In this document: positions 167 to 64,000 of the stretch, in pieces | How positions within the stretch are numbered: position 1 is the stretch's first letter | Layout: every line of letters begins with the position of its first letter | Origin: Octopus sinensis | Lineage: Eukaryota | DNA length: 64,000 nucleotides | Assembly: GCF_006345805.1 (NCBI RefSeq) | Contig: NC_043008.1 | Location: 70,060,001 to 70,124,000, forward strand | Reading direction: 5' to 3' | Made by a program: the position numbers and the translations under genes | The notes under the pieces: model-generated | Seen by the model: the letters and a program-made list of their open reading frames with translations, nothing else | What the model was told of the DNA's origin: nothing | Database searches by the model: none

Positions 167-401
167 AAAGAATATGTATACATATGTGTGTGTATATATA
201 TATTTTGATGATGATGGTTATATATATATATTCAGTAGAATGAGTTGCCACATCAAAGTGGCAGTTGAATGTTACTACTAGTTTAACCCTAGGCAGATTC
301 TCCACCAGGTAGTTTTCAATGCAGCATTCTGCATCCTTTCTATGCAATATATCACTAGCAGAAAGAGCGAACCCCTACTAACCTTTATCAGCTTACATGA
401 T

Positions 402-448
402 CGTGGGACTGACCCAGTTTCGAGCTAGTTGGCTCTTCATCAGCCGCA
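402..448 (-). ncRNA. Type I hammerhead ribozyme motif, intact core
   Basis: Minus strand reads ugcgg CUGAUGA a gagc-caacua-gcuc GAA acug-ggu-cagu C ccacg. Core is canonical, stem II 4 bp, stem III 4 bp, triplet GUC, stem I 5 bp with one mismatch. Confidence 0.75.
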
Positions 449-809
449 CACACCTGCACAATGGAGTGAAAGCTAGGATCCGCTTCTGCCAGTGATATAT
501 TGTAAATAAAGTGACCATCATGTTAGATGACTATTTTACTATCAAGGCGTTGTTTTACAGCTGATGCCCTTTCTGTCATTAACATTTATTTGTTCTCTGA
601 GTTCTTTTATTTCACATGTCTTTGAAAGTGCAAAGTGAGTAAATGATTTGTTGACAGATGTTTTTTGGCTTTAAAGATGCATAAATGACATAGGGGCTGA
701 GATTTTCATGAATGGAATTTATGAAACCTTGATAGGTGTAATGCAGGAAGCTGTTGACCTTTGAATCGATTTACTACCAAATTATTTGTGTGTGGGTGTA
801 TGTGAATAC

Positions 810-3089: not shown

Positions 3090-4085
3090 TAAGTGGTGTG
3101 GCTACAATATCGAACTACCAAATGGCTACAGTATTGAACAACTAAATTCAGTGGCTACACTATTGAAAAATTAATATATCCACCCATAAAGGTGCCAGCG
3201 TGGCTGTGTTGTAAGAAGTTTGCTTCCCCACCACATGTTTCTGGGTTCTGTCCCACTGCATGGCACCTTGGGCAAGTGTCTTCTACTATGGCCTCAGGTG
3301 GACTAGAGCCTTATGAGTTGATTTGGTGGACGAAAACTAAAAAAGCCTCCGTATGTATGTATGTATGTATGTATGTATGTATGTATATATAATGTGTGTG
3401 TGTGTCTGTGTTTATCTCTCCCCCATCACCACTTGACAACCAGTGTTGGTATGTTTACATCCCTGTAACTTAACAGTTTGGCAAAAAAGACTGATAGAAT
3501 AAGTACCAGGCTTGAAAATATAAGTACTGGAGTTGATTCATGTGACTAAGAATTCAAAGCAGTACCCCAGAATGGCTGTAGTCTAATGACTGAAACAAGT
3601 AAAAGATAAGATACATTCAGAGGTTATAATGTTGAACTACACATTCAGTGGCTACATTATTGAAAAATTAATATATCCGCCCATTCATTCACTGGTTACA
3701 GTATTGAACAACAAGCCTATCCTCTCATACTTTCTGTAGCTATATTATTGAACTATCTACCCACCTACATTTTGAGTGGTTAAAATATTCAGTGGCTACA
3801 GTATTGAACAACTATATTCAGTGGATACGCTGTTGAACTACCAACCTATACATTTAGCAGCTACATTATTCAGCTATCAACCTACAACCTATCTACTCAT
3901 ACATTCAATGGCTACAGTAATGAACTACCAAGCTACCCATCCATAGACTGATTGGCTGCAATATTGAACTATCAGCCTCTCCACTCATACATTCAGTGGC
4001 TACAATACTGAATGACCAACCCGCTTATCATTAAATTTAGTAGCTATTGTGTTGAACTATCACATTCAGTGGCTACATTACTGAA
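3090..4085. repeat. Degenerate minisatellite (core cattcagtggctacagtattgaactac), interrupted by a SINE
   Basis: More than 15 diverged copies of the ~30-45 bp unit on both sides of the SINE at 3191-3612. Confidence 0.8.
3191..3612 (+). mobile_element. SINE family A, full length, diverged
   Basis: tRNA-like head (tggctgtgttgtaag...gggttctgtccc), gcaccttgggcaagtgtcttc body, internal microsatellite, tgactgaaacaagtaaaaga tail. Confidence 0.9.
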
Positions 4086-18879: not shown

Positions 18880-19200
18880 TTTGCCTTGAAAGTTACTTGG
18901 TGACCCTGCCAGTGCTGGTGCCATATAAAAAGCATCCAATCCACACTGTTAAGTGATTGATATTTGGAAGGGTATCCAGCTGTAAAACCCCTATCAAAAC
19001 TGACCCTGCCTGTGCTGGTGCCACATACAAAGCACTCAGTCGACTCTGCTGGATGGTTGGTTCTAGAAAGGGCATCCAGCTGTAAAACCATACCAAAACA
19101 AGCAGAGAAGTTTGGTGCAGCTTTCTGCCTGGCCAGCTCCTGTCAAAATATCCTAACCATGCTAGCATGGAAGGCGGACGTTAAACAATGATGATGATGA
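18880..19200 (+). mobile_element. SINE/RTE-tail family C with internal duplication
   Basis: Two copies of tgaccctgcc..gtgctggtgcca..aagggcatccagctgtaaaacc, then catgctagcatggaaggcggacgttaaacaatgatgatga. Confidence 0.8.
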
Positions 19201-28740: not shown

Positions 28741-30196
28741 AAGGCAGACAAATCAGAAGTCCCTTCAGGTAGATGGCCCTTCTCAATTTGAAGAAAAGGT
28801 GTACGTAGTAGCTCTGTAAGATGCACGTGGAGTAAGCTTTAGACACATAAAAGGTGTAGCAATACCAGAGGAAGGTTAACAAAGAAAATAGCTTTTGTGT
28901 GTGGTAGATGCTTAGGTACAATGAACACTGAAAATGTACAGAAAATAGACTCCATCAACTGCCATTGGGGTAAGCTAGAAGTAGTAGGTAGCTTCCATTA
29001 TCTAGGTGATCAAGTTAGTAGCAGAGATGGATGCTCCAAGAGCATAGCTGTCAGAATAAGATTAGGCTGGGCAAAGTTTAGAGAGCTCCTGCCTGTGCTG
29101 GCAACAAAGGGCCTCTCTCTCAGAGTGGAAGACAGATTGTATGATGCTTGTGTGCAAACAGCTATGCTACAAGGCAGTGAAACATGGGCTGTGATAACTA
29201 AGGATATGTGTAGGCTTGAAAGAAATGAAACCAGTATGCTTTGCTGGATGTGCAATGTCAGTGTGCATGTTTGACAAAGTGTAAGCATCTTGAAAGGCAT
29301 TGAGGTGTCAGATGTGGTGTGCAAGGGAGACGAATGTACTGGTATGGTCATGTGATGCATATGGATGAGGATAGCCGTGTAAAAGAATGTGCTGATCCCT
29401 AACTGTAGGGGGAAACTGTGGTAGAGGTAGTCCCAGGAAAACATGGGGTGAGGTGGTGAAGCATGATCTCCAAACTTTGGGCCTCACAGAGGTAATGACT
29501 AGTGACTGAAACCTTTGGCGATGTGCTGTGCTTGAGAGGACCTGTAAAGCCAAGTGAAATTGCAGTCATAGCTGATGCTGGTGTCATGTAACTGGCACCT
29601 GTGCAGGTGACATGTAAAAAGCACCTTTTGAGCATTGAGCTTCATGAAGGCAAAGTGGTTGAGTTCCTTTCAAATGTTGGACTTCACAGAGACGATGACT
29701 GAGACCTTTGGCGTTATGTTGTGCTTGTGAAGAAGACCCATCAAGCCAAGCAAAATTGCAGTCATGGCAGATACCATTGTCATGCAAATTGCTCCTGTGC
29801 TGGTGACAGACAAAAGCACCGTTTGAACATTGGGCCTCGTGGAGGCAAGGACTGAGACCATTTGGCATTATGCCAGGTTTCAAGTGTTGGGCCTCACTGA
29901 GACAATGACTGAGTCCATTTGTCACTATGCTGTGCTTGAGAAGAAGAGCCACCAAGCCAAGTAAAACCACAGTCATGGCAGATACTGGTGTCACACAAAT
30001 GGCACCCGTGCCAGTGGCACATAAAAGCACTCATTATACTCTCAGGGTAGTTGGTAATAGAAAGGGCATCCAGCTGTAGAAACCATGCCAAAACAAACTG
30101 GTATCTAGTGCAGCCTTCCATCTTTCCAGCTCTGGTCAAGCCATCCAACCCATGCCAACATGGACAACAGACGTTAAGTGGTGATGATGATGATGA
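28739..30196 (+). mobile_element. RTE-clade LINE 3' fragment with tandemly repeated 3' region (copy 1)
   Basis: ORF 28897-29274: LEVVGSFHYLGD...RIRLGWAKFRELLPVL...LYDACVQTAMLQGSETW, followed by RWYGHV-like and RGSPRKTW motifs. Ends in the family C tail and (GAT)n. Confidence 0.9.
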
Positions 30197-30826
30197 CACC
30201 AACTCTGCTATTACAGATTAAGAGATTTGGAACACTTTTCTCAAGTAGATGGCGATGTTTCATCCTAGTTTATATACATAAATACATATATGTTTACCTG
30301 ACAGAAAAAAAAATAAACATAATATAAAAATAAAACATACTGTTTTATTATAAGCAAAGATATAAATGACATGATTAATGGCTCAAACAATTCATTAATC
30401 ATTGGTAATAATCAGTCACCCTAAAATATTTAACTGATTAAAATATTGCGTTACCTTAATGAAGTATATAACTTGTACATTTGATATCAGTTCCAGCTTC
30501 AATATCGAATATTATTTCTAGGCTTGCTCTAATATAATTTCACAATTAGAATCTCTAGAGAATCCATACAAGTCCAATAACTGAGGATATATTCTAGATC
30601 AAGGCTAGAAATAATTTATTACAGAAAGTTAATTAATTAATTAATTAATATGATCGATGGTGTGTTACATAATTTTCCTCATACACTAATTGTCAAATAT
30701 ACATCACCAGATAAATTATTCTCATTATTCATAGTTTCCTTCTCTCTTTCTCCTCTCTTACTTTCTGCCCTTCACTCTCTCTTTCTTTTCCTATGCACAC
30801 ACACACACACATGCACATGCATTGCA

Positions 30827-30875
<49 letters not shown>

Positions 30876-32332
30876 GGAAGGCAGACAAATCAGAAGTCCT
30901 TCAGGTAGATGGCCCTTCTCAATTTGAAGAAAAGGTGTACGTAGTAGCTCTGTAAGATGCACGTGGAGTAAGCTTTAGACACATAAAAGGTGTAGCAATA
31001 CCAGAGGAAGGTTAACAAAGAAAATAGCTTTTGTGTGTGGTAGATGCTTAGGTACAATGAACACTGAAAATGTACAGAAAATAGACTCCATCAACTGCCA
31101 TTGGGGTAAGCTAGAAGTAGTAGGTAGCTTCCATTATCTAGGTGATCAAGTTAGTAGCAGAGATGGATGCTCCAAGAGCATAGCTGTCAGAATAAGATTA
31201 GGCTGGGCAAAGTTTAGAGAGCTCCTGCCTGTGCTGGCAACAAAGGGCCTCTCTCTCAGAGTGGAAGACAGATTGTATGATGCTTGTGTGCAAACAGCTA
31301 TGCTACAAGGCAGTGAAACATGGGCTGTGATAACTAAGGATATGTGTAGGCTTGAAAGAAATGAAACCAGTATGCTTTGCTGGATGTGCAATGTCAGTGT
31401 GCATGTTTGACAAAGTGTAAGCATCTTGAAAGGCATTGAGGTGTCAGATGTGGTGTGCAAGGGAGACGAATGTACTGGTATGGTCATGTGATGCATATGG
31501 ATGAGGATAGCCGTGTAAAAGAATGTGCTGATCCCTAACTGTAGGGGGAAACTGTGGTAGAGGTAGTCCCAGGAAAACATGGGGTGAGGTGGTGAAGCAT
31601 GATCTCCAAACTTTGGGCCTCACAGAGGTAATGACTAGTGACTGAAACCTTTGGCGATGTGCTGTGCTTGAGAGGACCTGTAAAGCCAAGTGAAATTGCA
31701 GTCATAGCTGATGCTGGTGTCATGTAACTGGCACCTGTGCAGGTGACATGTAAAAAGCACCTTTTGAGCATTGAGCTTCATGAAGGCAAAGTGGTTGAGT
31801 TCCTTTCAAATGTTGGACTTCACAGAGACGATGACTGAGACCTTTGGCGTTATGTTGTGCTTGTGAAGAAGACCCATCAAGCCAAGCAAAATTGCAGTCA
31901 TGGCAGATACCATTGTCATGCAAATTGCTCCTGTGCTGGTGACAGACAAAATCACCGTTTGAACATTGGGCCTCATGGAGGCAAGGACTGAGACCATTTG
32001 GCATTATGCCAGGTTTCAAGTGTTGGGCCTCACTGAGACAATGACTGAGTCCATTTGTCACTATGCTGTGCTTGAGAAGAAGAGCCACCAAGCCAAGTAA
32101 AACCACAGTTATGGCAGATACTGGTGTCACACAAATGGCACCCGTGCCAGTGGCACATAAAAGCACTCATTATACTCTCAGGGTGGTTGGTAATAGAAAG
32201 GGCATCCAGCTGTAGAATCCATGCCAAAACAAACTGGTATCTAGTGCAGCCTTCCATCTTTCCAGCTCTGGTCAAGCCATCCAACCCATGCCAACATGGA
32301 CAACAGACGTTAAGTGGTGATGATGATGATGA
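30876..32332 (+). mobile_element. RTE-clade LINE 3' fragment (copy 2)
   Basis: ORF 31033-31410 gives the same protein as copy 1. Confidence 0.9.
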
Positions 32333-42319: not shown

Positions 42320-43146
42320 ATCCTTAAATCCTTAAAAATGTTTTAGCCCGAAGGCCGCGGCCATGCTGGGGCACCACCGCTGAATGAGCTACACTAGTTT
42401 GTGAATCCACCTCTGATACGTGGCACTTGATCAACAAGGGAGTTCGATGCTGCTGCCCGCATCCGTGTCTCCTGTCGTGAGGTAGGTTCATCTGTGACTC
42501 CCAACAAGAAGAGATCCAGTTTAATTTTAAAGAAACCACATCCACACCATGTAAGTCTCTCAGGCATTTAGGGAGGATGTTAAAGAGCTGTGGTCCTCTG
42601 AAACCCAAGCTGTTGCAGTATCTGGACCTGTATTTTGATGGTGATGTTGGAATCCTTGGCACCACGCAGCGGCGCCCCGTTCTGCGGTTGGAGTAACTTT
42701 GAATGCCAAAGTTTGGGACAAGACCCTCCAGGATTTTCCAGATGTATATCACTGCATATCTCTCCCGCCTCCGCTCCAGGGAGAAGAGGTTTAATACCTT
42801 CAGTCTTTCCCAGTAGCTGACATTTTGCATTGAGACGATTTTCTTTGTGTAGCTTCTCTGAGTTGCTTCGAGTTCTGCTGTTTGTTTTATATTGTGTGGT
42901 GACCAAAGTTGGGAGCAGTAGTCCAAGCGGCTGAGGACAAATGTTTTCCATAGGACCATCAGTGTCTCCTTCTCTCTTGTTCTGAAAGTTTGGAGAATCC
43001 ATCCAGCTAACCGTCTGCATTTTATCACCAGATTAGCAATATGCATTTGGAAAGATGCATCATTGCTCATGTCAATGCCCAGGTCACGCACTGATTTTGA
43101 CTCAGGGATTGCAATTCTTCCTGGGCCAGTGTATCCAGTCTTCACG

Positions 43147-43147
<1 letters not shown>
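42320..43147 (-). mobile_element. CR1-group LINE, 5'-truncated 3' fragment, relatively young
   Basis: VRDLGIDMSNDASFQMHI..WKTFVLSRLDYCSQLWSPH..LEATQRSYTKKI..SYWERLKVLNLFSLERRRER, open for more than 200 codons, flanked by (TA)n. Confidence 0.92.
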
Positions 43148-43177
<30 letters not shown>

Positions 43178-43178
<1 letters not shown>

Positions 43179-43510
43179 TGCCAGTGACGTTAAAAGCACC
43201 ATTTGAGCATTGGGCCTCATGGTGGCAGTGACAGGTAACCAAGACCCTTGGTGATATACAGTGCTTGTGTTGTCCTGTAAAACCAAATGAGACCATACTC
43301 ATGACCGATGTGGGTGTCAGGTCAATAGCTCCCATGCCAGCGGTACGTAAAATGTACCCACTACACTCTCAGAGCGGATGGCATTAGGAAGGGCATCCAG
43401 CTGTAGAAACCTTGGCAAATCAGATTGGAACCTGGTGCAGCCCAGTGGCTCACCAGTTTTCGGTCAAACTCATGCTGGCATGGAAAGCAGACATTAAATG
43501 ATGATGATGA
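43178..43510 (+). mobile_element. SINE/RTE-tail family C
   Basis: gagcattgggcctcatgg..ttaggaagggcatccagctgtagaaacc..catgctggcatggaaagcagacattaaatgatgatga. Confidence 0.85.
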
Positions 43511-43525
43511 TACATACATACACAT

Positions 43526-43938
43526 AGGCACAGGAGTGGCTGTGTGGTAAGTAGCTTGCTAACCAGCCTCATGGTTCCGGGTTCAGTCCCACTGCGTGGC
43601 ATCTTGGGCAAGTGTCTTCTGCTATAGCCCCGGGCTGACCAATACCTTGTGAGTGGATTTGGTAGACGGAAACTGAAAGAAGCCTGTTGTATATATGTAT
43701 ATATATATATATGTATGTGTGTGTGTTTGTGTGTCTGTGTTTGTTCCCCTAGCATTGCTTGACAACCGATGCTGGTATGTTTATGTCTCCGTTACTTAGC
43801 GGTTCGGCAAAAAGAGACCGATAGAATAAGTACTGGGCTTACAAAAAGAATAAGTCCCGGGGTCGAGTTGCTCGACTAAAGGCGGTGCTCCAGCATGGCC
43901 GCAGTCAAATGACTGAAACAAGTAAAAGAGTAAAGAGT
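43526..43938 (+). mobile_element. SINE family A, full length (tRNA-derived)
   Basis: A box tggctgtgtggtaag, B box gggttcagtccc, body, internal microsatellite, tail tgaaacaagtaaaagagtaaagag. Confidence 0.93.
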
Positions 43939-45739: not shown

Positions 45740-46250
45740 TGTTTGTTGACACCACACCTAAGAACGAATTAAGTAAGGCATTTAAGAAAATCCTGCGCAC
45801 AGCTGGCCTTAAAATCTAAGTTGTAGAAAAGACTGGTAGGACTATCAAATCTGTTTTATGTAGATCATATCCATTTGATGGAATCACGTGCCAAAATAAT
45901 TGTGCAGTATGTTCTACAAACCCACATGTGAACTGCAAAACCAAGAGCACTGTATACCAAATTAAGTGCCAAGAAGGAGCTTGCATGACTAACCCAGAGT
46001 CATACATAGGTGAGACTTCTAGGAGTATCAATGATAGGTTCAAAGAACACCTGGACAACTACATTGAAAAGAAAGCAAACCCCATCTTCTATCAGCATGC
46101 TGTAGACTGCCACAAGGGCTCCTTAGGGAGACTTAAGTTAAACATCCTATCCACACATCCCACTGATGCAATGCTGAGACAAGTCACTGAAACTGTCTGT
46201 ATACAAGACTACAATCCCACTCACAACCATAAATCCGAATGGGGTAACAT
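45740..46250 (+). pseudogene. Penelope-like element C-terminal GIY-YIG endonuclease fragment
   Basis: C..NCAVC..NCKTKSTVYQIKC...SYIGETSRSINDRFKEH...H...H...RQVTETVCIQDYNPTHNHKSEWG, with an upstream in-frame stop. Confidence 0.9.
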
Positions 46251-46584
46251 CCAGATTTCACTTGGGAGTACCATTCTAAAGCCACCCCTTTCTCTCGTTT
46301 ACATGTGGTAATCTATACATACATGTTGAAATGCATGATACTAAAATACATATATGCAGTTATATATAACCATATGAGCGTACATAGTTTGGTACATATG
46401 TACGTATGTGTAGAAGTATATGTGTGTGTATGTGTTGTGTGTTGTGTATAAGTATGTACATGCATGCACATATGAGTATGTGTAGATATATGTATGTATT
46501 GTATATGTATGCATGTAAAAAAAGAATAAATAGAATAAAATAAAGCAAATTTGAATTTTAACTATTGTCCTTGAAAAGACTGTC

Positions 46585-50208: not shown

Positions 50209-51774
50209 AAGCAGGCATAAGTCTATTTTAGAATTCCAATTCAAACCATGTGGTTTTAGGTTAAGCTTCACTCCATGCTATGTTTGACAAGTGTTTCCTA
50301 CTATTCCTCTTGGCTGACATATGCCTAGTAAGTGAAACTGGTTGGTTTTCATAAATAAATCCTGCTTAACCATTGACTTACTTTTGGAACTCCTTGTAGA
50401 ATCCAAGAATGAAAACTGTTTAAAATTAGTCCTAAAGTGTGAATTGGTTGTGTCCTGAGCAAAATTATGTCAATGGAAACCTTAAAGTTATGTACGTGTA
50501 AATAGTTGGTATGCATGTTCTGTTTACTGTATAGTTTCTGTAAGTAATAGTAACAACTGCCAACTGAACAAGCATAGTTAGCAGTTTAAAAAAAATAAAA
50601 ACTCTAGTGGGTTACATTGAATGTGTGTTTTAATGTTAGATTTGAATATGCCTTTCATTTTGATCATGATTTTACTCAGCTATTACTCTGAGTTTTGTCA
50701 CCACATTTAGCTGCTGTGATAAATGCGAATCAAACAAAATGAAGTCAACATAGTAATATAATACAAAATAACACTAAACTAGAATATATATATATTTCAT
50801 AGATGGATTGTCTTTCAGTTACAACCAAACAAAAGTTCTACCATTTCCTGGTCTTCAGGTACTGGATTAATATATCAAAGACACATATTCATGCTAAATG
50901 CTAAAATCAAAAGAAAAAGACTGAAAAAGAAAAAAAGCTCACAATTATCAGTTTGAGCATATAAAATTATATTGGTATTTTTCTTTTCCTGCAGGCATAT
51001 ATTGCTTACTATCTCTCAATATTTGAATTTTCTCATTTTCCATTTACATTGTAAAATATGTATATGATGGCGTCAATGCCTAGCCATTTTTATTTCACCA
51101 GTTTGATGCAACTATCATTGTATCTTTTACTTATTTATTTATTTATTTATGTATTTATTTATTTATTCTTTATCAAGTTTACCTGGACAACAAAAAATTC
51201 CATTGAAAAATGTTTGCAAGTGAAGGGATGCCTCTCTAACACAGCTATCTTTTGATGCTGTATGAATTCTATGGTTGTGTGGTTATATACAAAGATATTC
51301 AATTTTAGTATGGGCACTATGTGTGACACTAAATATATAAATACACCATGGCAATTACTATATTGTCAATGTCATTATACCTTTAACTACATTTATTTGA
51401 ATAATCCGAGGCAACACCCAATGATACCAATCTTCCTTTTGGGTACCAATTTTCTGTTTGCAATGACGTTTAACAAATCAAAAGTATTTTCACTTTATTT
51501 TATAATAATTTTCAATCCATTTAATTATAATAAATATATCTAATGCCATTATTAATACACTAATTAAAAGCATGTTCCACAGTACAAATAAATACTTGAA
51601 AATTAAAATTTAGAGAAAATGATATATAAAAAATCATCCTAATATAATTTTCCATATAGCAGCTGATAATTGTGAAGTCTGATAGTCAATTCAAAGAGTG
51701 TGTTCATCACTGAATAGACCAATTATTAGATTAAAGCGCTGTTTGAATGAGCCATGTGTTCTTTTGATTCACAT

Positions 51775-51948
51775 AGGCGTAGGAGTGGTTGTGTGGTAAG
51801 TAGCTTGCTTACCGACTACATGGTTCTGCGTTCAGTCCCACTGCGTGGCACCTTGAGCAAGTTTCTTCTATTATAATCTTGGGCCGACCAAAGCCTTGTG
51901 AGTGGATTTGGTAGATGGAAACTGAAAGAAGCCCGTCATATATGTATG

Positions 51949-51985
<37 letters not shown>

Positions 51986-52180
51986 CTGTGTTTGTCCCCC
52001 TAACATCACTTGACAACTGATGTTGGTGTGTTAATGTCCCTGTAACTTAGCAGTTCGGCAAAAGAGACTGATAGAATAATTACTAGGTCTACAAAGTATA
52101 AGTCCTGGGGTCAATTTGCTTGACTAAAGGCAGTGCTCCAGCATGGCCACAGTCAAATGACTGAAACAAGTAAAAGAGTA
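51775..52180 (+). mobile_element. SINE family A, full length
   Basis: Colinear with 43526-43938. Confidence 0.93.
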
Positions 52181-56155: not shown

Positions 56156-57242
56156 CCCTTTTGTTACTATATTTCTGACCAAAATACACCCCTTATGTGT
56201 TTCAATTAATTTCTAACGTAATCATAAATTTAGTCTGGTTTCATTAAACAACTATAACTTTTTTATTTATCAATATATTAACATGAATTTTGGAAGATAA
56301 TTTAATGAAATGTTCTCAACCAATTCTATACTATAATTTTTGTCACAAAGTGACTCTAATTGCAGGTAGATACAGGTAAATTCAACAATATATAAAATTA
56401 TTAAAATTTTGTTCAAACATCGCTATAGAAAATGGGTTATTAGCTAATATTCAATTGGGTATACAACAAAATTTTACGATAGAATTTGTTATTCTGGGTA
56501 AATTTCTGATACCCATAATAATATTTATGGCAAAATAGGCTTTAATTTCATTTAAGGTTGTGGGAAATAACAAACTATCCTTTCTTTCGCTTTGTTTACG
56601 TTTAGCGTAACGGTTTGTTTCTGCCGTAATGATTTCAAATAGGCTCATTCGAAAAAGTAAAAAGAAATAGTTTAAGGCTTTACTCTTCTGGGAAAGTCTG
56701 TGGCTTGGTCCAGTTTCTTCAGAAAAATCACCGAAAGAAACAGTTTTTAAATTTTCACTCCATTCAGGTGCCAATTCATTTTCTTTATCGCTGTTGGAGC
56801 TCTCAGATTCACTGTTTTCACTTTCGGAAAATGAAACATCAGATTCATTATCAAATACCACATACTTTTTTTTTTCAGTCATAGAGTTAGATTTATGAAG
56901 GTCTTCAGTAGAAAATCCTTCGAATTCTGACTCGCTGCTTGATATAATGAAATTTGTATCCATTTTTTGTCAGAATTACAAATTTTGAAAACACAATAGG
57001 AACAAATTTCGGGAAAAAATCTCCCATAATTCACGGAATTAAAATTACACTTCGATTTTTGTACAAAACTGTAGTTGAACTGTTTATGAAGTATAATACG
57101 TGTTTTCACGAATGTACTAAAGAGATTTACTCTGATATTCTCATTTAAATATGAACAGGTAAATTCGGGCGGTTTGGGGCGGCTTGGTCACATTAACCCA
57201 AATTTTTTTCGGGCGGTTTCGGGTGGTTTGGTAACAAAAGGG
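56156..57242 (-). mobile_element. piggyBac element, internal-deletion derivative, 1087 bp
   Basis: TTAA TSDs (56152-56155, 57243-57246), perfect 12 bp TIR CCCTTTTGTTAC, subterminal ttcgggcggttt repeats. Confidence 0.95.
56451..56963 (-). CDS. Truncated piggyBac (PGBD4-like) transposase N-terminus
   Basis: Acidic N-terminus SSSESEFEGF, then YFFLLF..FEIITAETNRYA..PTTLNEIKAYFAINIIMGI.NLP. No DDD catalytic domain. Confidence 0.8.
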   Translation of the reverse strand: MDTNFIISSSESEFEGFSTEDLHKSNSMTEKKKYVVFDNESDVSFSESENSESESSNSDKENELAPEWSENLKTVSFGDFSEETGPSHRLSQKSKALNYFFLLFRMSLFEIITAETNRYAKRKQSERKDSLLFPTTLNEIKAYFAINIIMGIRNLPRITNSIVKFCCIPN

Positions 57243-62616: not shown

Positions 62617-64000
62617 GTGAGTATTTTGTTTGCATTCTAAGTTTTCCTTCTTTTAAACAATCAACATCTCTTTCTCTTTTACAATGAATAGTTGAAATGT
62701 TATATTTCTTTCTTTCTCTTTTTTCCTTTCTGTCTGTCTTTCTTTCTTTCTTTCTTTCTTCTTCTTCTTTTTCTCATTTTTCTTCTTCTTCTTCTTCTTC
62801 TAAACATTTTCATACATATAAACACACACACACACACTCTCTCTCCTTACTTTCCCTCTTGCTCTACCTTCCCTGCACACTCTGTCTCAAGTGTTCTCTC
62901 TCTCAAACACACACTCACTCACTCACTCTATCTTGTGCATATGCATACACACTCACTCTCTACATACACACACACTTGCTTGTACACATGCAATTCTCAA
63001 AGAATGGTAAAAATTCTTCCTTTCCTGCTGCTCCATTAGTAGATTATTTAAAGGGAAGTTATCTTTTATCATTTTCCCTTACCAACTCCACACCTGAACA
63101 CTCATACACATGCACAAACATACCTACAATTACAGGCAAACACACACATGAAATCAATGCCGTTTATTTTAACCAGAACCACACAAAAATCTTAAATCTA
63201 TGATTCCAAAAACAAAACCATATTCAACGTAAGACAAGGAATTTTTACATTTTCGTAAATGAATTTCGAATTCCATTTGAAGGGGCATTTTAATAAAATT
63301 AGAATTTTCTGGTATTTTTGCTTTAGAAATTTCAATTAGAGAAATAGAAATTATGTTATAGAAGAATGTTCCGGAGTAATATGAAGAATGGTTCACTCAT
63401 TTTAGAGGGGGGCGGTGGTTGATGATGATAACCTGCAATTAATTAGAAAGTGGGCTCTTCCTATATTTTTGGAGATTCCGGTTCCATTTTGATGTTTATT
63501 TTTGATAATCACAGGAGATTGTTATACCTTCAAATAGTATGTGTAGCTGTGTGTATGTGTGTGGGTGCGTGCGTGGGTGCGTGCGTGGGTGCGTGCACCC
63601 GACTGTCTGTTTCATTCTTTCAGTCTCTCTCTCTCTGTATGTGTGTGTCTGATGATTGTAGCAGTCCACAAATAAGAAAAAAATTCTATGTTAAAAACAG
63701 GGTAACAAATAATTAGATTTATTCATATTTTACAAAATAGCCACACTGTTTCAGCAAAGCAAATATTCCCAAGCTTTATCAGAAAATATATATAGTCTAA
63801 ACCATGGCAGCATGGAAAACAGACGTTAAATAATGATATATATATATATATATATACAAAATGGATTCTCCTGTTGGAGACGATGTATAAGTGTTCAGCT
63901 TTTACCAAACGACCTACACAAATGATTTTGTTTTTGATGATCAAATGTATGTGTGGTATATTATCTCACATGCTCCATCAAATCTCTGTTGCCTAAACAG

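Follow-up and report, generated by a model that had tools for sequence, protein, structure and literature searches.

Does the hammerhead motif on the minus strand of this Octopus sinensis locus mark a ribozyme that still cleaves, or the remains of an element that spread through the genome? The question arises in a 64,000-nucleotide stretch (hereafter, the window), in which a first-pass annotation had noted a hammerhead enclosed by a short inverted repeat. The reading that we favor, with reasonable confidence, is that the minus-strand segment 234-519 is an old, solitary monomer from a probable family of octopod non-LTR retrozymes, predicted to be inactive and likely copied by Penelope-like elements (PLEs). 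The features on which this reading is built are collected in Table 1.

Table 1. Features of the element and its surroundings, in window positions
Feature	Position	Strand	Evidence
Solo monomer, unit ~272-285 bp, left end between 234 and 247	234..519	-	contig coverage, joints
Hammerhead domain including helix I upper stem, type I	395..457	-	sequence, descriptor, folding, Rfam HH9 alignment
Core C3-A9, CUGAUGA	437..443	-	sequence
Extra A between A9 and G10.1	436..436	-	sequence, Rfam HH9 alignment
Helix II, 4 bp (G10.1-C11.1), GAGC/GCUC 435-432/425-422, loop CAACUA	422..435	-	pair probability 0.96-0.99
GAAA (421-418) and helix III (417-415/411-409)	408..421	-	sequence, descriptor
Predicted cleavage site, after GUC (409-407)	406..407	-	sequence and hammerhead consensus
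Stem I mismatch	404..404	-	family contigs read C on plus strand
5' arm of long rod stem (right arm on plus strand)	484..511	-	repeat comparison, folding
3' arm of long rod stem	336..363	-	repeat comparison, folding, family letters
3' segment of unit	243..308	-	summed depth up to 25-40x ribozyme region, all four runs
(TA)n run adjoining the element's 3' end (minus sense)	219..231	.	sequence
GIY-YIG fragment, 3' part of Penelope-like element	45820-46311	+	Pfam PF01541, E 3e-5

Read from the sequence, the motif is a type I hammerhead at 443-407 of the minus strand, and its predicted cut, 407^406, follows from the position of the GUC, in agreement with the first-pass annotation. All invariant core letters (CUGANGA, GAAA and NUH) are intact in the window copy. 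The core had been described as canonical, which holds for CUGAUGA, GAAA and GUC, but the extra A436 makes it not strictly so. Similarly, helices II and III had both been given as 4-bp stems; this is true of helix II, but helix III consists of only three Watson-Crick pairs plus A15.1-U16.1, with a 3-nt loop, and its hairpin is worth only -0.5 kcal/mol. Stem I is formed by the pairs 444-406, 445-405 and 447-403 and the G.U pair 448-402, interrupted by the mismatch C446xA404, so that helix I of the window copy has 4 of 5 pairs, and a further defect lies at 398 in its upper stem. The hexaloop of helix II and the internal loop of helix I are placed as for a loop 1-loop 2 contact, and 4 of the 6 letters of loop II are those of the Rfam family HH9.

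A descriptor requiring the core, at least 4 bp in stem II, at least 3 bp in stem III and 3 of 4 pairs in stem I, applied to both strands, found a single site in the real window and two matches in 150 block-wise dinucleotide shuffles; when the stem I condition was dropped, 10 sites appeared in the 150 shuffled windows. A further descriptor site, weak and devoid of stems I and III, lies at 63649. At the gathering level, Rfam yielded no match anywhere in the 64-kb window. The HH9 model (RF02275) reached 22.3 bits (E 0.0025 on 296 bases), its cut-off being 52, with the same topology over the full model (1-77/77) and CAACUA in loop II in place of CAAAAA; because the score is far below the cut-off, the window motif is not a member of HH9. 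HH9 itself is a conserved intronic motif of amniotes. We also take loop II to resemble the corresponding loop of the type I hammerhead of Schistosoma Sm-alpha. The (+) hammerhead of CChMVd likewise has an extra A (A10) between A9 and G10.1, which, according to PMC1636495, it tolerates with a moderate loss of rate; the CChMVd hammerhead is a viroid ribozyme, however, whereas the window motif is a genomic repeat. Neither the descriptor nor Rfam detected a second ribozyme in 243-330 or in the rest of the window.

The inverted repeat around the motif was confirmed as initially described, with arms at 343-363 and 484-504 and two differences, located exactly at 344 and 357, the latter being a G.U pair on the minus strand. 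It extends further outward, to 28 nt at 86% (336-363/484-511), and continues inward via G.U pairs. In the predicted fold, a rod of about 30 pairs rises from the repeat as its base and bears the ribozyme at the tip. This fold is strand-biased: for 242-519, the minus strand reaches -98.4 kcal/mol (z -4.45, with 0 of 200 shuffles as good) and the plus strand -77.6 kcal/mol (z -2.79, 1 of 200). In the pairing that continues from the arms, G.U pairs make up 13 of 67 pairs on the minus strand versus 7 of 59 on the plus strand (-71.0 versus -55.2 kcal/mol). The family boundary defined below is some 100 bases beyond the left arm; the inverted repeat is thus internal to the element, and the 21-bp arms do not delimit it. 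A 28-bp inverted repeat at 86% identity could potentially also belong to a MITE or another inverted-repeat DNA element carrying the hammerhead as a passenger or a chance match, and the sub-threshold HH9 score is compatible with such an origin. Against this speak the non-terminal left arm, the pairing that continues through G.U pairs on one strand, the rarity of the descriptor in shuffled sequence and the repair of the ribozyme helices by family letters. With the left arm away from the terminus and no target-site duplication of at least 7 bases found at the element, we rejected the MITE reading, to which we assign hardly any credence.

The limits of the retrozyme-like unit emerge from its relatives. 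A search for other copies had been suggested as the way to set the ends of the element, and it revealed a multi-copy family that places them at about 234/242-519. The stretch, or part of it, is contained in 20 of 24 sequencing runs, which carry six organism labels; no RNA run is listed among those that contain it, which has no bearing on expression. Family contigs were drawn from runs X3, X8, X14 and X18 (related organisms C, D, E and F, respectively) and placed on 233-780 at 80% likeness, a sample that leaves out the window's own species, the best-matching organisms A and B and the runs guessed to be RNA; they number 577, 441, 653 and 333, and most are less than 90% alike. Summed depth drops from 89-2177 to 5-96 at 518, and the edge at 519 is sharp; the whole of 234-519 is covered by one contig. 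Among 15 of the 52 joints, four run head to tail, 513->242, 518->244, 519->242 and 519->235 (272, 275, 278 and 285 bp, respectively), each in one contig, three of them in X14 and one in X3; the remaining 11 either skip ahead, change strand or, in one case, step back a short way. Joints seen in single contigs could be assembly loops of collapsed repeats. At the level of contig sequence, the four end-to-start joints suggest that the family may form arrays, none of which was seen intact; the copy described here is solo, and no second copy of the element was found in the 64-kb window. Together with a GC content of 44% and the strand-biased rod, the multi-copy unit and its head-to-tail joints support the original proposal of a hammerhead in a compact, retrozyme-like RNA. 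No stop-free frame of at least 110 aa overlaps the element. An apparent terminal direct repeat, 225-250 versus 495-517, was unsupported, given that 18% of 5060 null windows scored equally, and two short patterns taken from the element had no match in metagenome or viral contigs.

Depth is unevenly distributed along the unit, and its 3' segment, where depth is in excess, probably also belongs to a diverged subfamily of greater abundance. By eye, among 24 of the 596 loose ends of contigs, those before 242-249 are similar to window positions 493-519 as well as 233-246, and those behind 308 to positions 309-338, apart from a short gap. This likeness suggests that the abundant diverged subfamily might itself be arranged head to tail. 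Relative to single contigs, depth over the ribozyme is roughly some tens, whereas over 271-289 it ranges from several hundred to about a thousand, summed depth not being equivalent to copy number. On the other side of the unit, the right junction is crossed by near-identical contigs of C (408-639, with 2 differences) and of D (342-589, with 10), which means that the insertion predates these two lineages. Short multi-copy repeats also occur to the right of the element, at 594-669 and 546-575, with a depth peak at 613-650; the 546-575 repeat recurs at 19065, 30059, 32195 and 62301.

Comparison with the family letters indicates which features of the window copy are decay. We examined 40 of 262 difference rows, 34 of them inside the element, with percentages expressed as shares of summed depth. 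None of these 40 rows affects an invariant core position and two affect free ones, namely, position 439 (core position 7), which is C in 30-73% of the family depth, and the extra nucleotide at 436, A in the window copy and U in 16-45% of the family depth. Position 404 is C in 44, 72, 69 and 56% of the depth (17, 12, 19 and 10 contigs), which restores helix I and supports CpG decay of stem I, as the first-pass annotation had surmised; its assumption that this was the sole defect, however, does not hold, considering the second one at 398. There, the family letter (80-89%) restores the upper stem, and at 448 it turns the G.U pair into G-C, such that helix I with family letters has 5 of 5 pairs and a 5-bp upper stem. 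In the rod, pairs at 340 and 344 are repaired by the family letters, and at 412 the family letter (41-76%) renders helix III, loop included, nearly a palindrome; family letters at 362-364, in contrast, would disrupt or displace pairs of the rod, barring partner changes in the remaining rows. The majority letters may mix subfamilies.

Could the window copy nevertheless function as a monomeric ribozyme, possibly retained by the host at this site? Every invariant core letter is intact, the insertion is common to organisms C and D, and the folding model disregards tertiary contacts and co-transcriptional folding. However, helix I is broken at both 404 and 398, the letter at 412 extends a competing helix, and 8 of the 34 differences inside the element are CpG-decay-like, as in neutral aging. 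The competitor is the ggcuga/ucaguc helix, which the first-pass annotation had named as the fold whose dominance would count against the ribozyme, and in silico it does dominate, with pair probabilities of 0.84-0.98. The hammerhead-constrained ensemble of the window copy lies 10.1 kcal/mol above the free ensemble, a gap that becomes 4.8 kcal/mol with the family letter at 404, 2.9 kcal/mol with those at 404 and 412, and 6.9 kcal/mol with all 23 majority letters. With the hammerhead fold 10-14 kcal/mol above the alternative, a working ribozyme at this locus is very unlikely. The earlier suggestion of activity as a monomer is accordingly not sustained by the modeling: because the competing helix dominates and the hammerhead fold is about 10 kcal/mol higher, such activity of the window copy is unlikely.

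Measured from the best fold, the hammerhead of the 393-459 domain lies 14.5 kcal/mol higher as a monomer and 10.4 kcal/mol per unit higher as a double hammerhead in the window copy, compared with 3.8-7.4 and 1.0-2.4 kcal/mol, respectively, in five sets of family letters. Helix III formed as a two-copy duplex would yield -11.4 kcal/mol in the window copy and -16.6 kcal/mol with the family letter at 412, which is weak support for dimers because any hairpin gains in this manner. The window copy is thus modeled as decayed and inactive, and the family-letter models favor a dimeric hammerhead over a monomer; as the energies omit tertiary contacts, Mg and co-transcriptional folding and were computed without a known-active control, the death of the window copy and the dimer preference of the family are predictions. 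Dimeric type I motifs have been reviewed (PMC6155905). Axolotl motifs are reported to cut far better as dimers (PMC7229834), and one of nine Xenopus genomic dimers cleaved, as described by Li, Clavereau and Pollet (2026; 10.64898/2026.07.22.740005).

The favored assignment to a retrozyme family rests on comparison with the metazoan non-LTR retrozymes described by Cervera and de la Pena (2020; PMC7229834), which are 150-450 bp long with less than 50% GC, with units of 220-245 nt in coral, 350-390 nt in mussel and 330/350 nt in axolotl. The probable octopod family shares with these elements, as presented there, a type I hammerhead, a non-coding unit of a few hundred bases, a GC content below 50%, a highly self-paired fold, many copies, head-to-tail joints and the presence of PLE sequence in the same genome; it differs in the extra nucleotide after A9 and in that the window copy is solo. 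The species tested in that work include a mussel, which is a mollusc, and its main text names neither octopus nor cephalopods, although its supplement may include the family. With respect to the solo state, Li, Clavereau and Pollet (2026) report that full-length dispersed retrozyme monomers are common and that two or more hammerhead units are required for an 'active' element, in a sample that comprises 31 vertebrates, 3 insects and 1 coral, and no mollusc. The solo copies in that study derive from PLE pseudo-LTRs (pLTRs); the octopus-window copy is likewise solo, and any homology of its family to a pLTR would be hypothetical.

The kinship of pLTRs and retrozymes in Xenopus (10.64898/2026.07.22.740005) raises the alternative that 234-519 is a solo pLTR of an autonomous PLE, in which case the hammerhead would be owned by the PLE and the tandem joints would be those of partial-tandem pLTRs. 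An extra 9/10.1 nucleotide and a palindromic helix III are traits of PLE hammerheads (PMC4209133; Cervera and de la Pena 2014), depth peaks at the 3' end in the minus sense, as expected of 5' truncation, a (TA)n run adjoins the element, and a PLE fragment is present in the same window. The minimal PLE hammerhead, however, is described as having a helix II of 7-8 bp, little or no helix III and a poorly defined loop 1, although variants of other shapes exist (PMC4209133). Unlike it, the window motif has a canonical 4-bp helix II with a hexaloop, a 3-pair helix III, and a helix I with an internal loop and an upper stem. Moreover, among 24 of the 596 loose ends, none falls at 519, where the ORF would join, and no copy of the element lies beside the PLE fragment. 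At this one locus, no ORF with reverse transcriptase and GIY-YIG domains flanks the element. We consider the pLTR origin rather unlikely, if the most serious of the competing explanations.

The PLE fragment shares 43% identity with an ORF of 799 aa that carries a YVDD motif and, at its C terminus, a GIY-YIG domain, presumably a PLE. No sequence link between the element and this fragment was found within the window. The fragment sits among microsatellites, with no hammerhead adjoining, and the window as a whole is AT-rich and full of microsatellites. EN+ PLEs have been reported to show a microsatellite insertion bias (10.1101/2021.04.23.441226), and the (TA)n run next to the element is a possible insertion target.

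By analogy with the known retrozyme cycle, the putative octopod retrozyme family may have propagated as follows. Tandem source arrays would be transcribed, and neighboring hammerheads would cut after GUC, releasing unit-length RNA. Adjacent hammerheads would probably form a double hammerhead, with the near-palindromic helix III providing the pairing. The rod could then bring the RNA ends together for ligation to a circle, with the ribozyme folded off, and the Penelope reverse transcriptase and GIY-YIG endonuclease might insert copies, here beside the (TA)n run. Because one hammerhead cannot free a unit-length RNA, the window copy would be a dead end even if it cut.

If correct, the favored assignment adds a probable octopod family to the non-LTR retrozymes, and a ribozyme that combines canonical and Penelope-type traits would agree with the proposal that animal retrozymes originated from Penelope elements. 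Hammerheads in cephalopods as such are already known, from 235 Rfam hammerhead-1 loci in the giant squid (PMC6962438). In the open literature, to which the search was confined (subscription papers, Repbase and Dfam lying outside it), we found no description of an octopod or cephalopod family of this kind. For experiments, the window copy is ill suited, and intact tandem members would be the better choice. It is conceivable, if unlikely, that the octopod family is large and still active, with a hammerhead intermediate between the canonical and Penelope types that cuts as a dimer and gives rise to abundant circular RNAs of about 280 bases. A-to-I editing is very high in octopods. Should such an active, circle-making family exist, its 30-pair rods would be natural substrates for this editing, and the editing of a retroelement circle and its write-back into the genome would be directly testable.

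Other repeats were noted in the window. From about 28762 to 32200, a near-exact direct duplication with a period of 2136 bp carries identical frames of 143 aa and 157 aa and represents either a recent event or an assembly artifact; no tRNA gene was found in the window. On the minus strand, a LINE-type fragment at 42324-43298 has relatives carrying PF00078, the top named one, from Argonauta hians (63% identity), ranking second among the 120 listed, and a transposase fragment with a DDE_Tnp_1_7 domain (PF13843, E 9e-8), which we take to be piggyBac-like, lies at 56451-56969. Dispersed repeats at 1-170, 1968-2215, 3182-3413, 43518-43749 and 51767-51998 are SINE-like and presumably resemble octopus SINEs.
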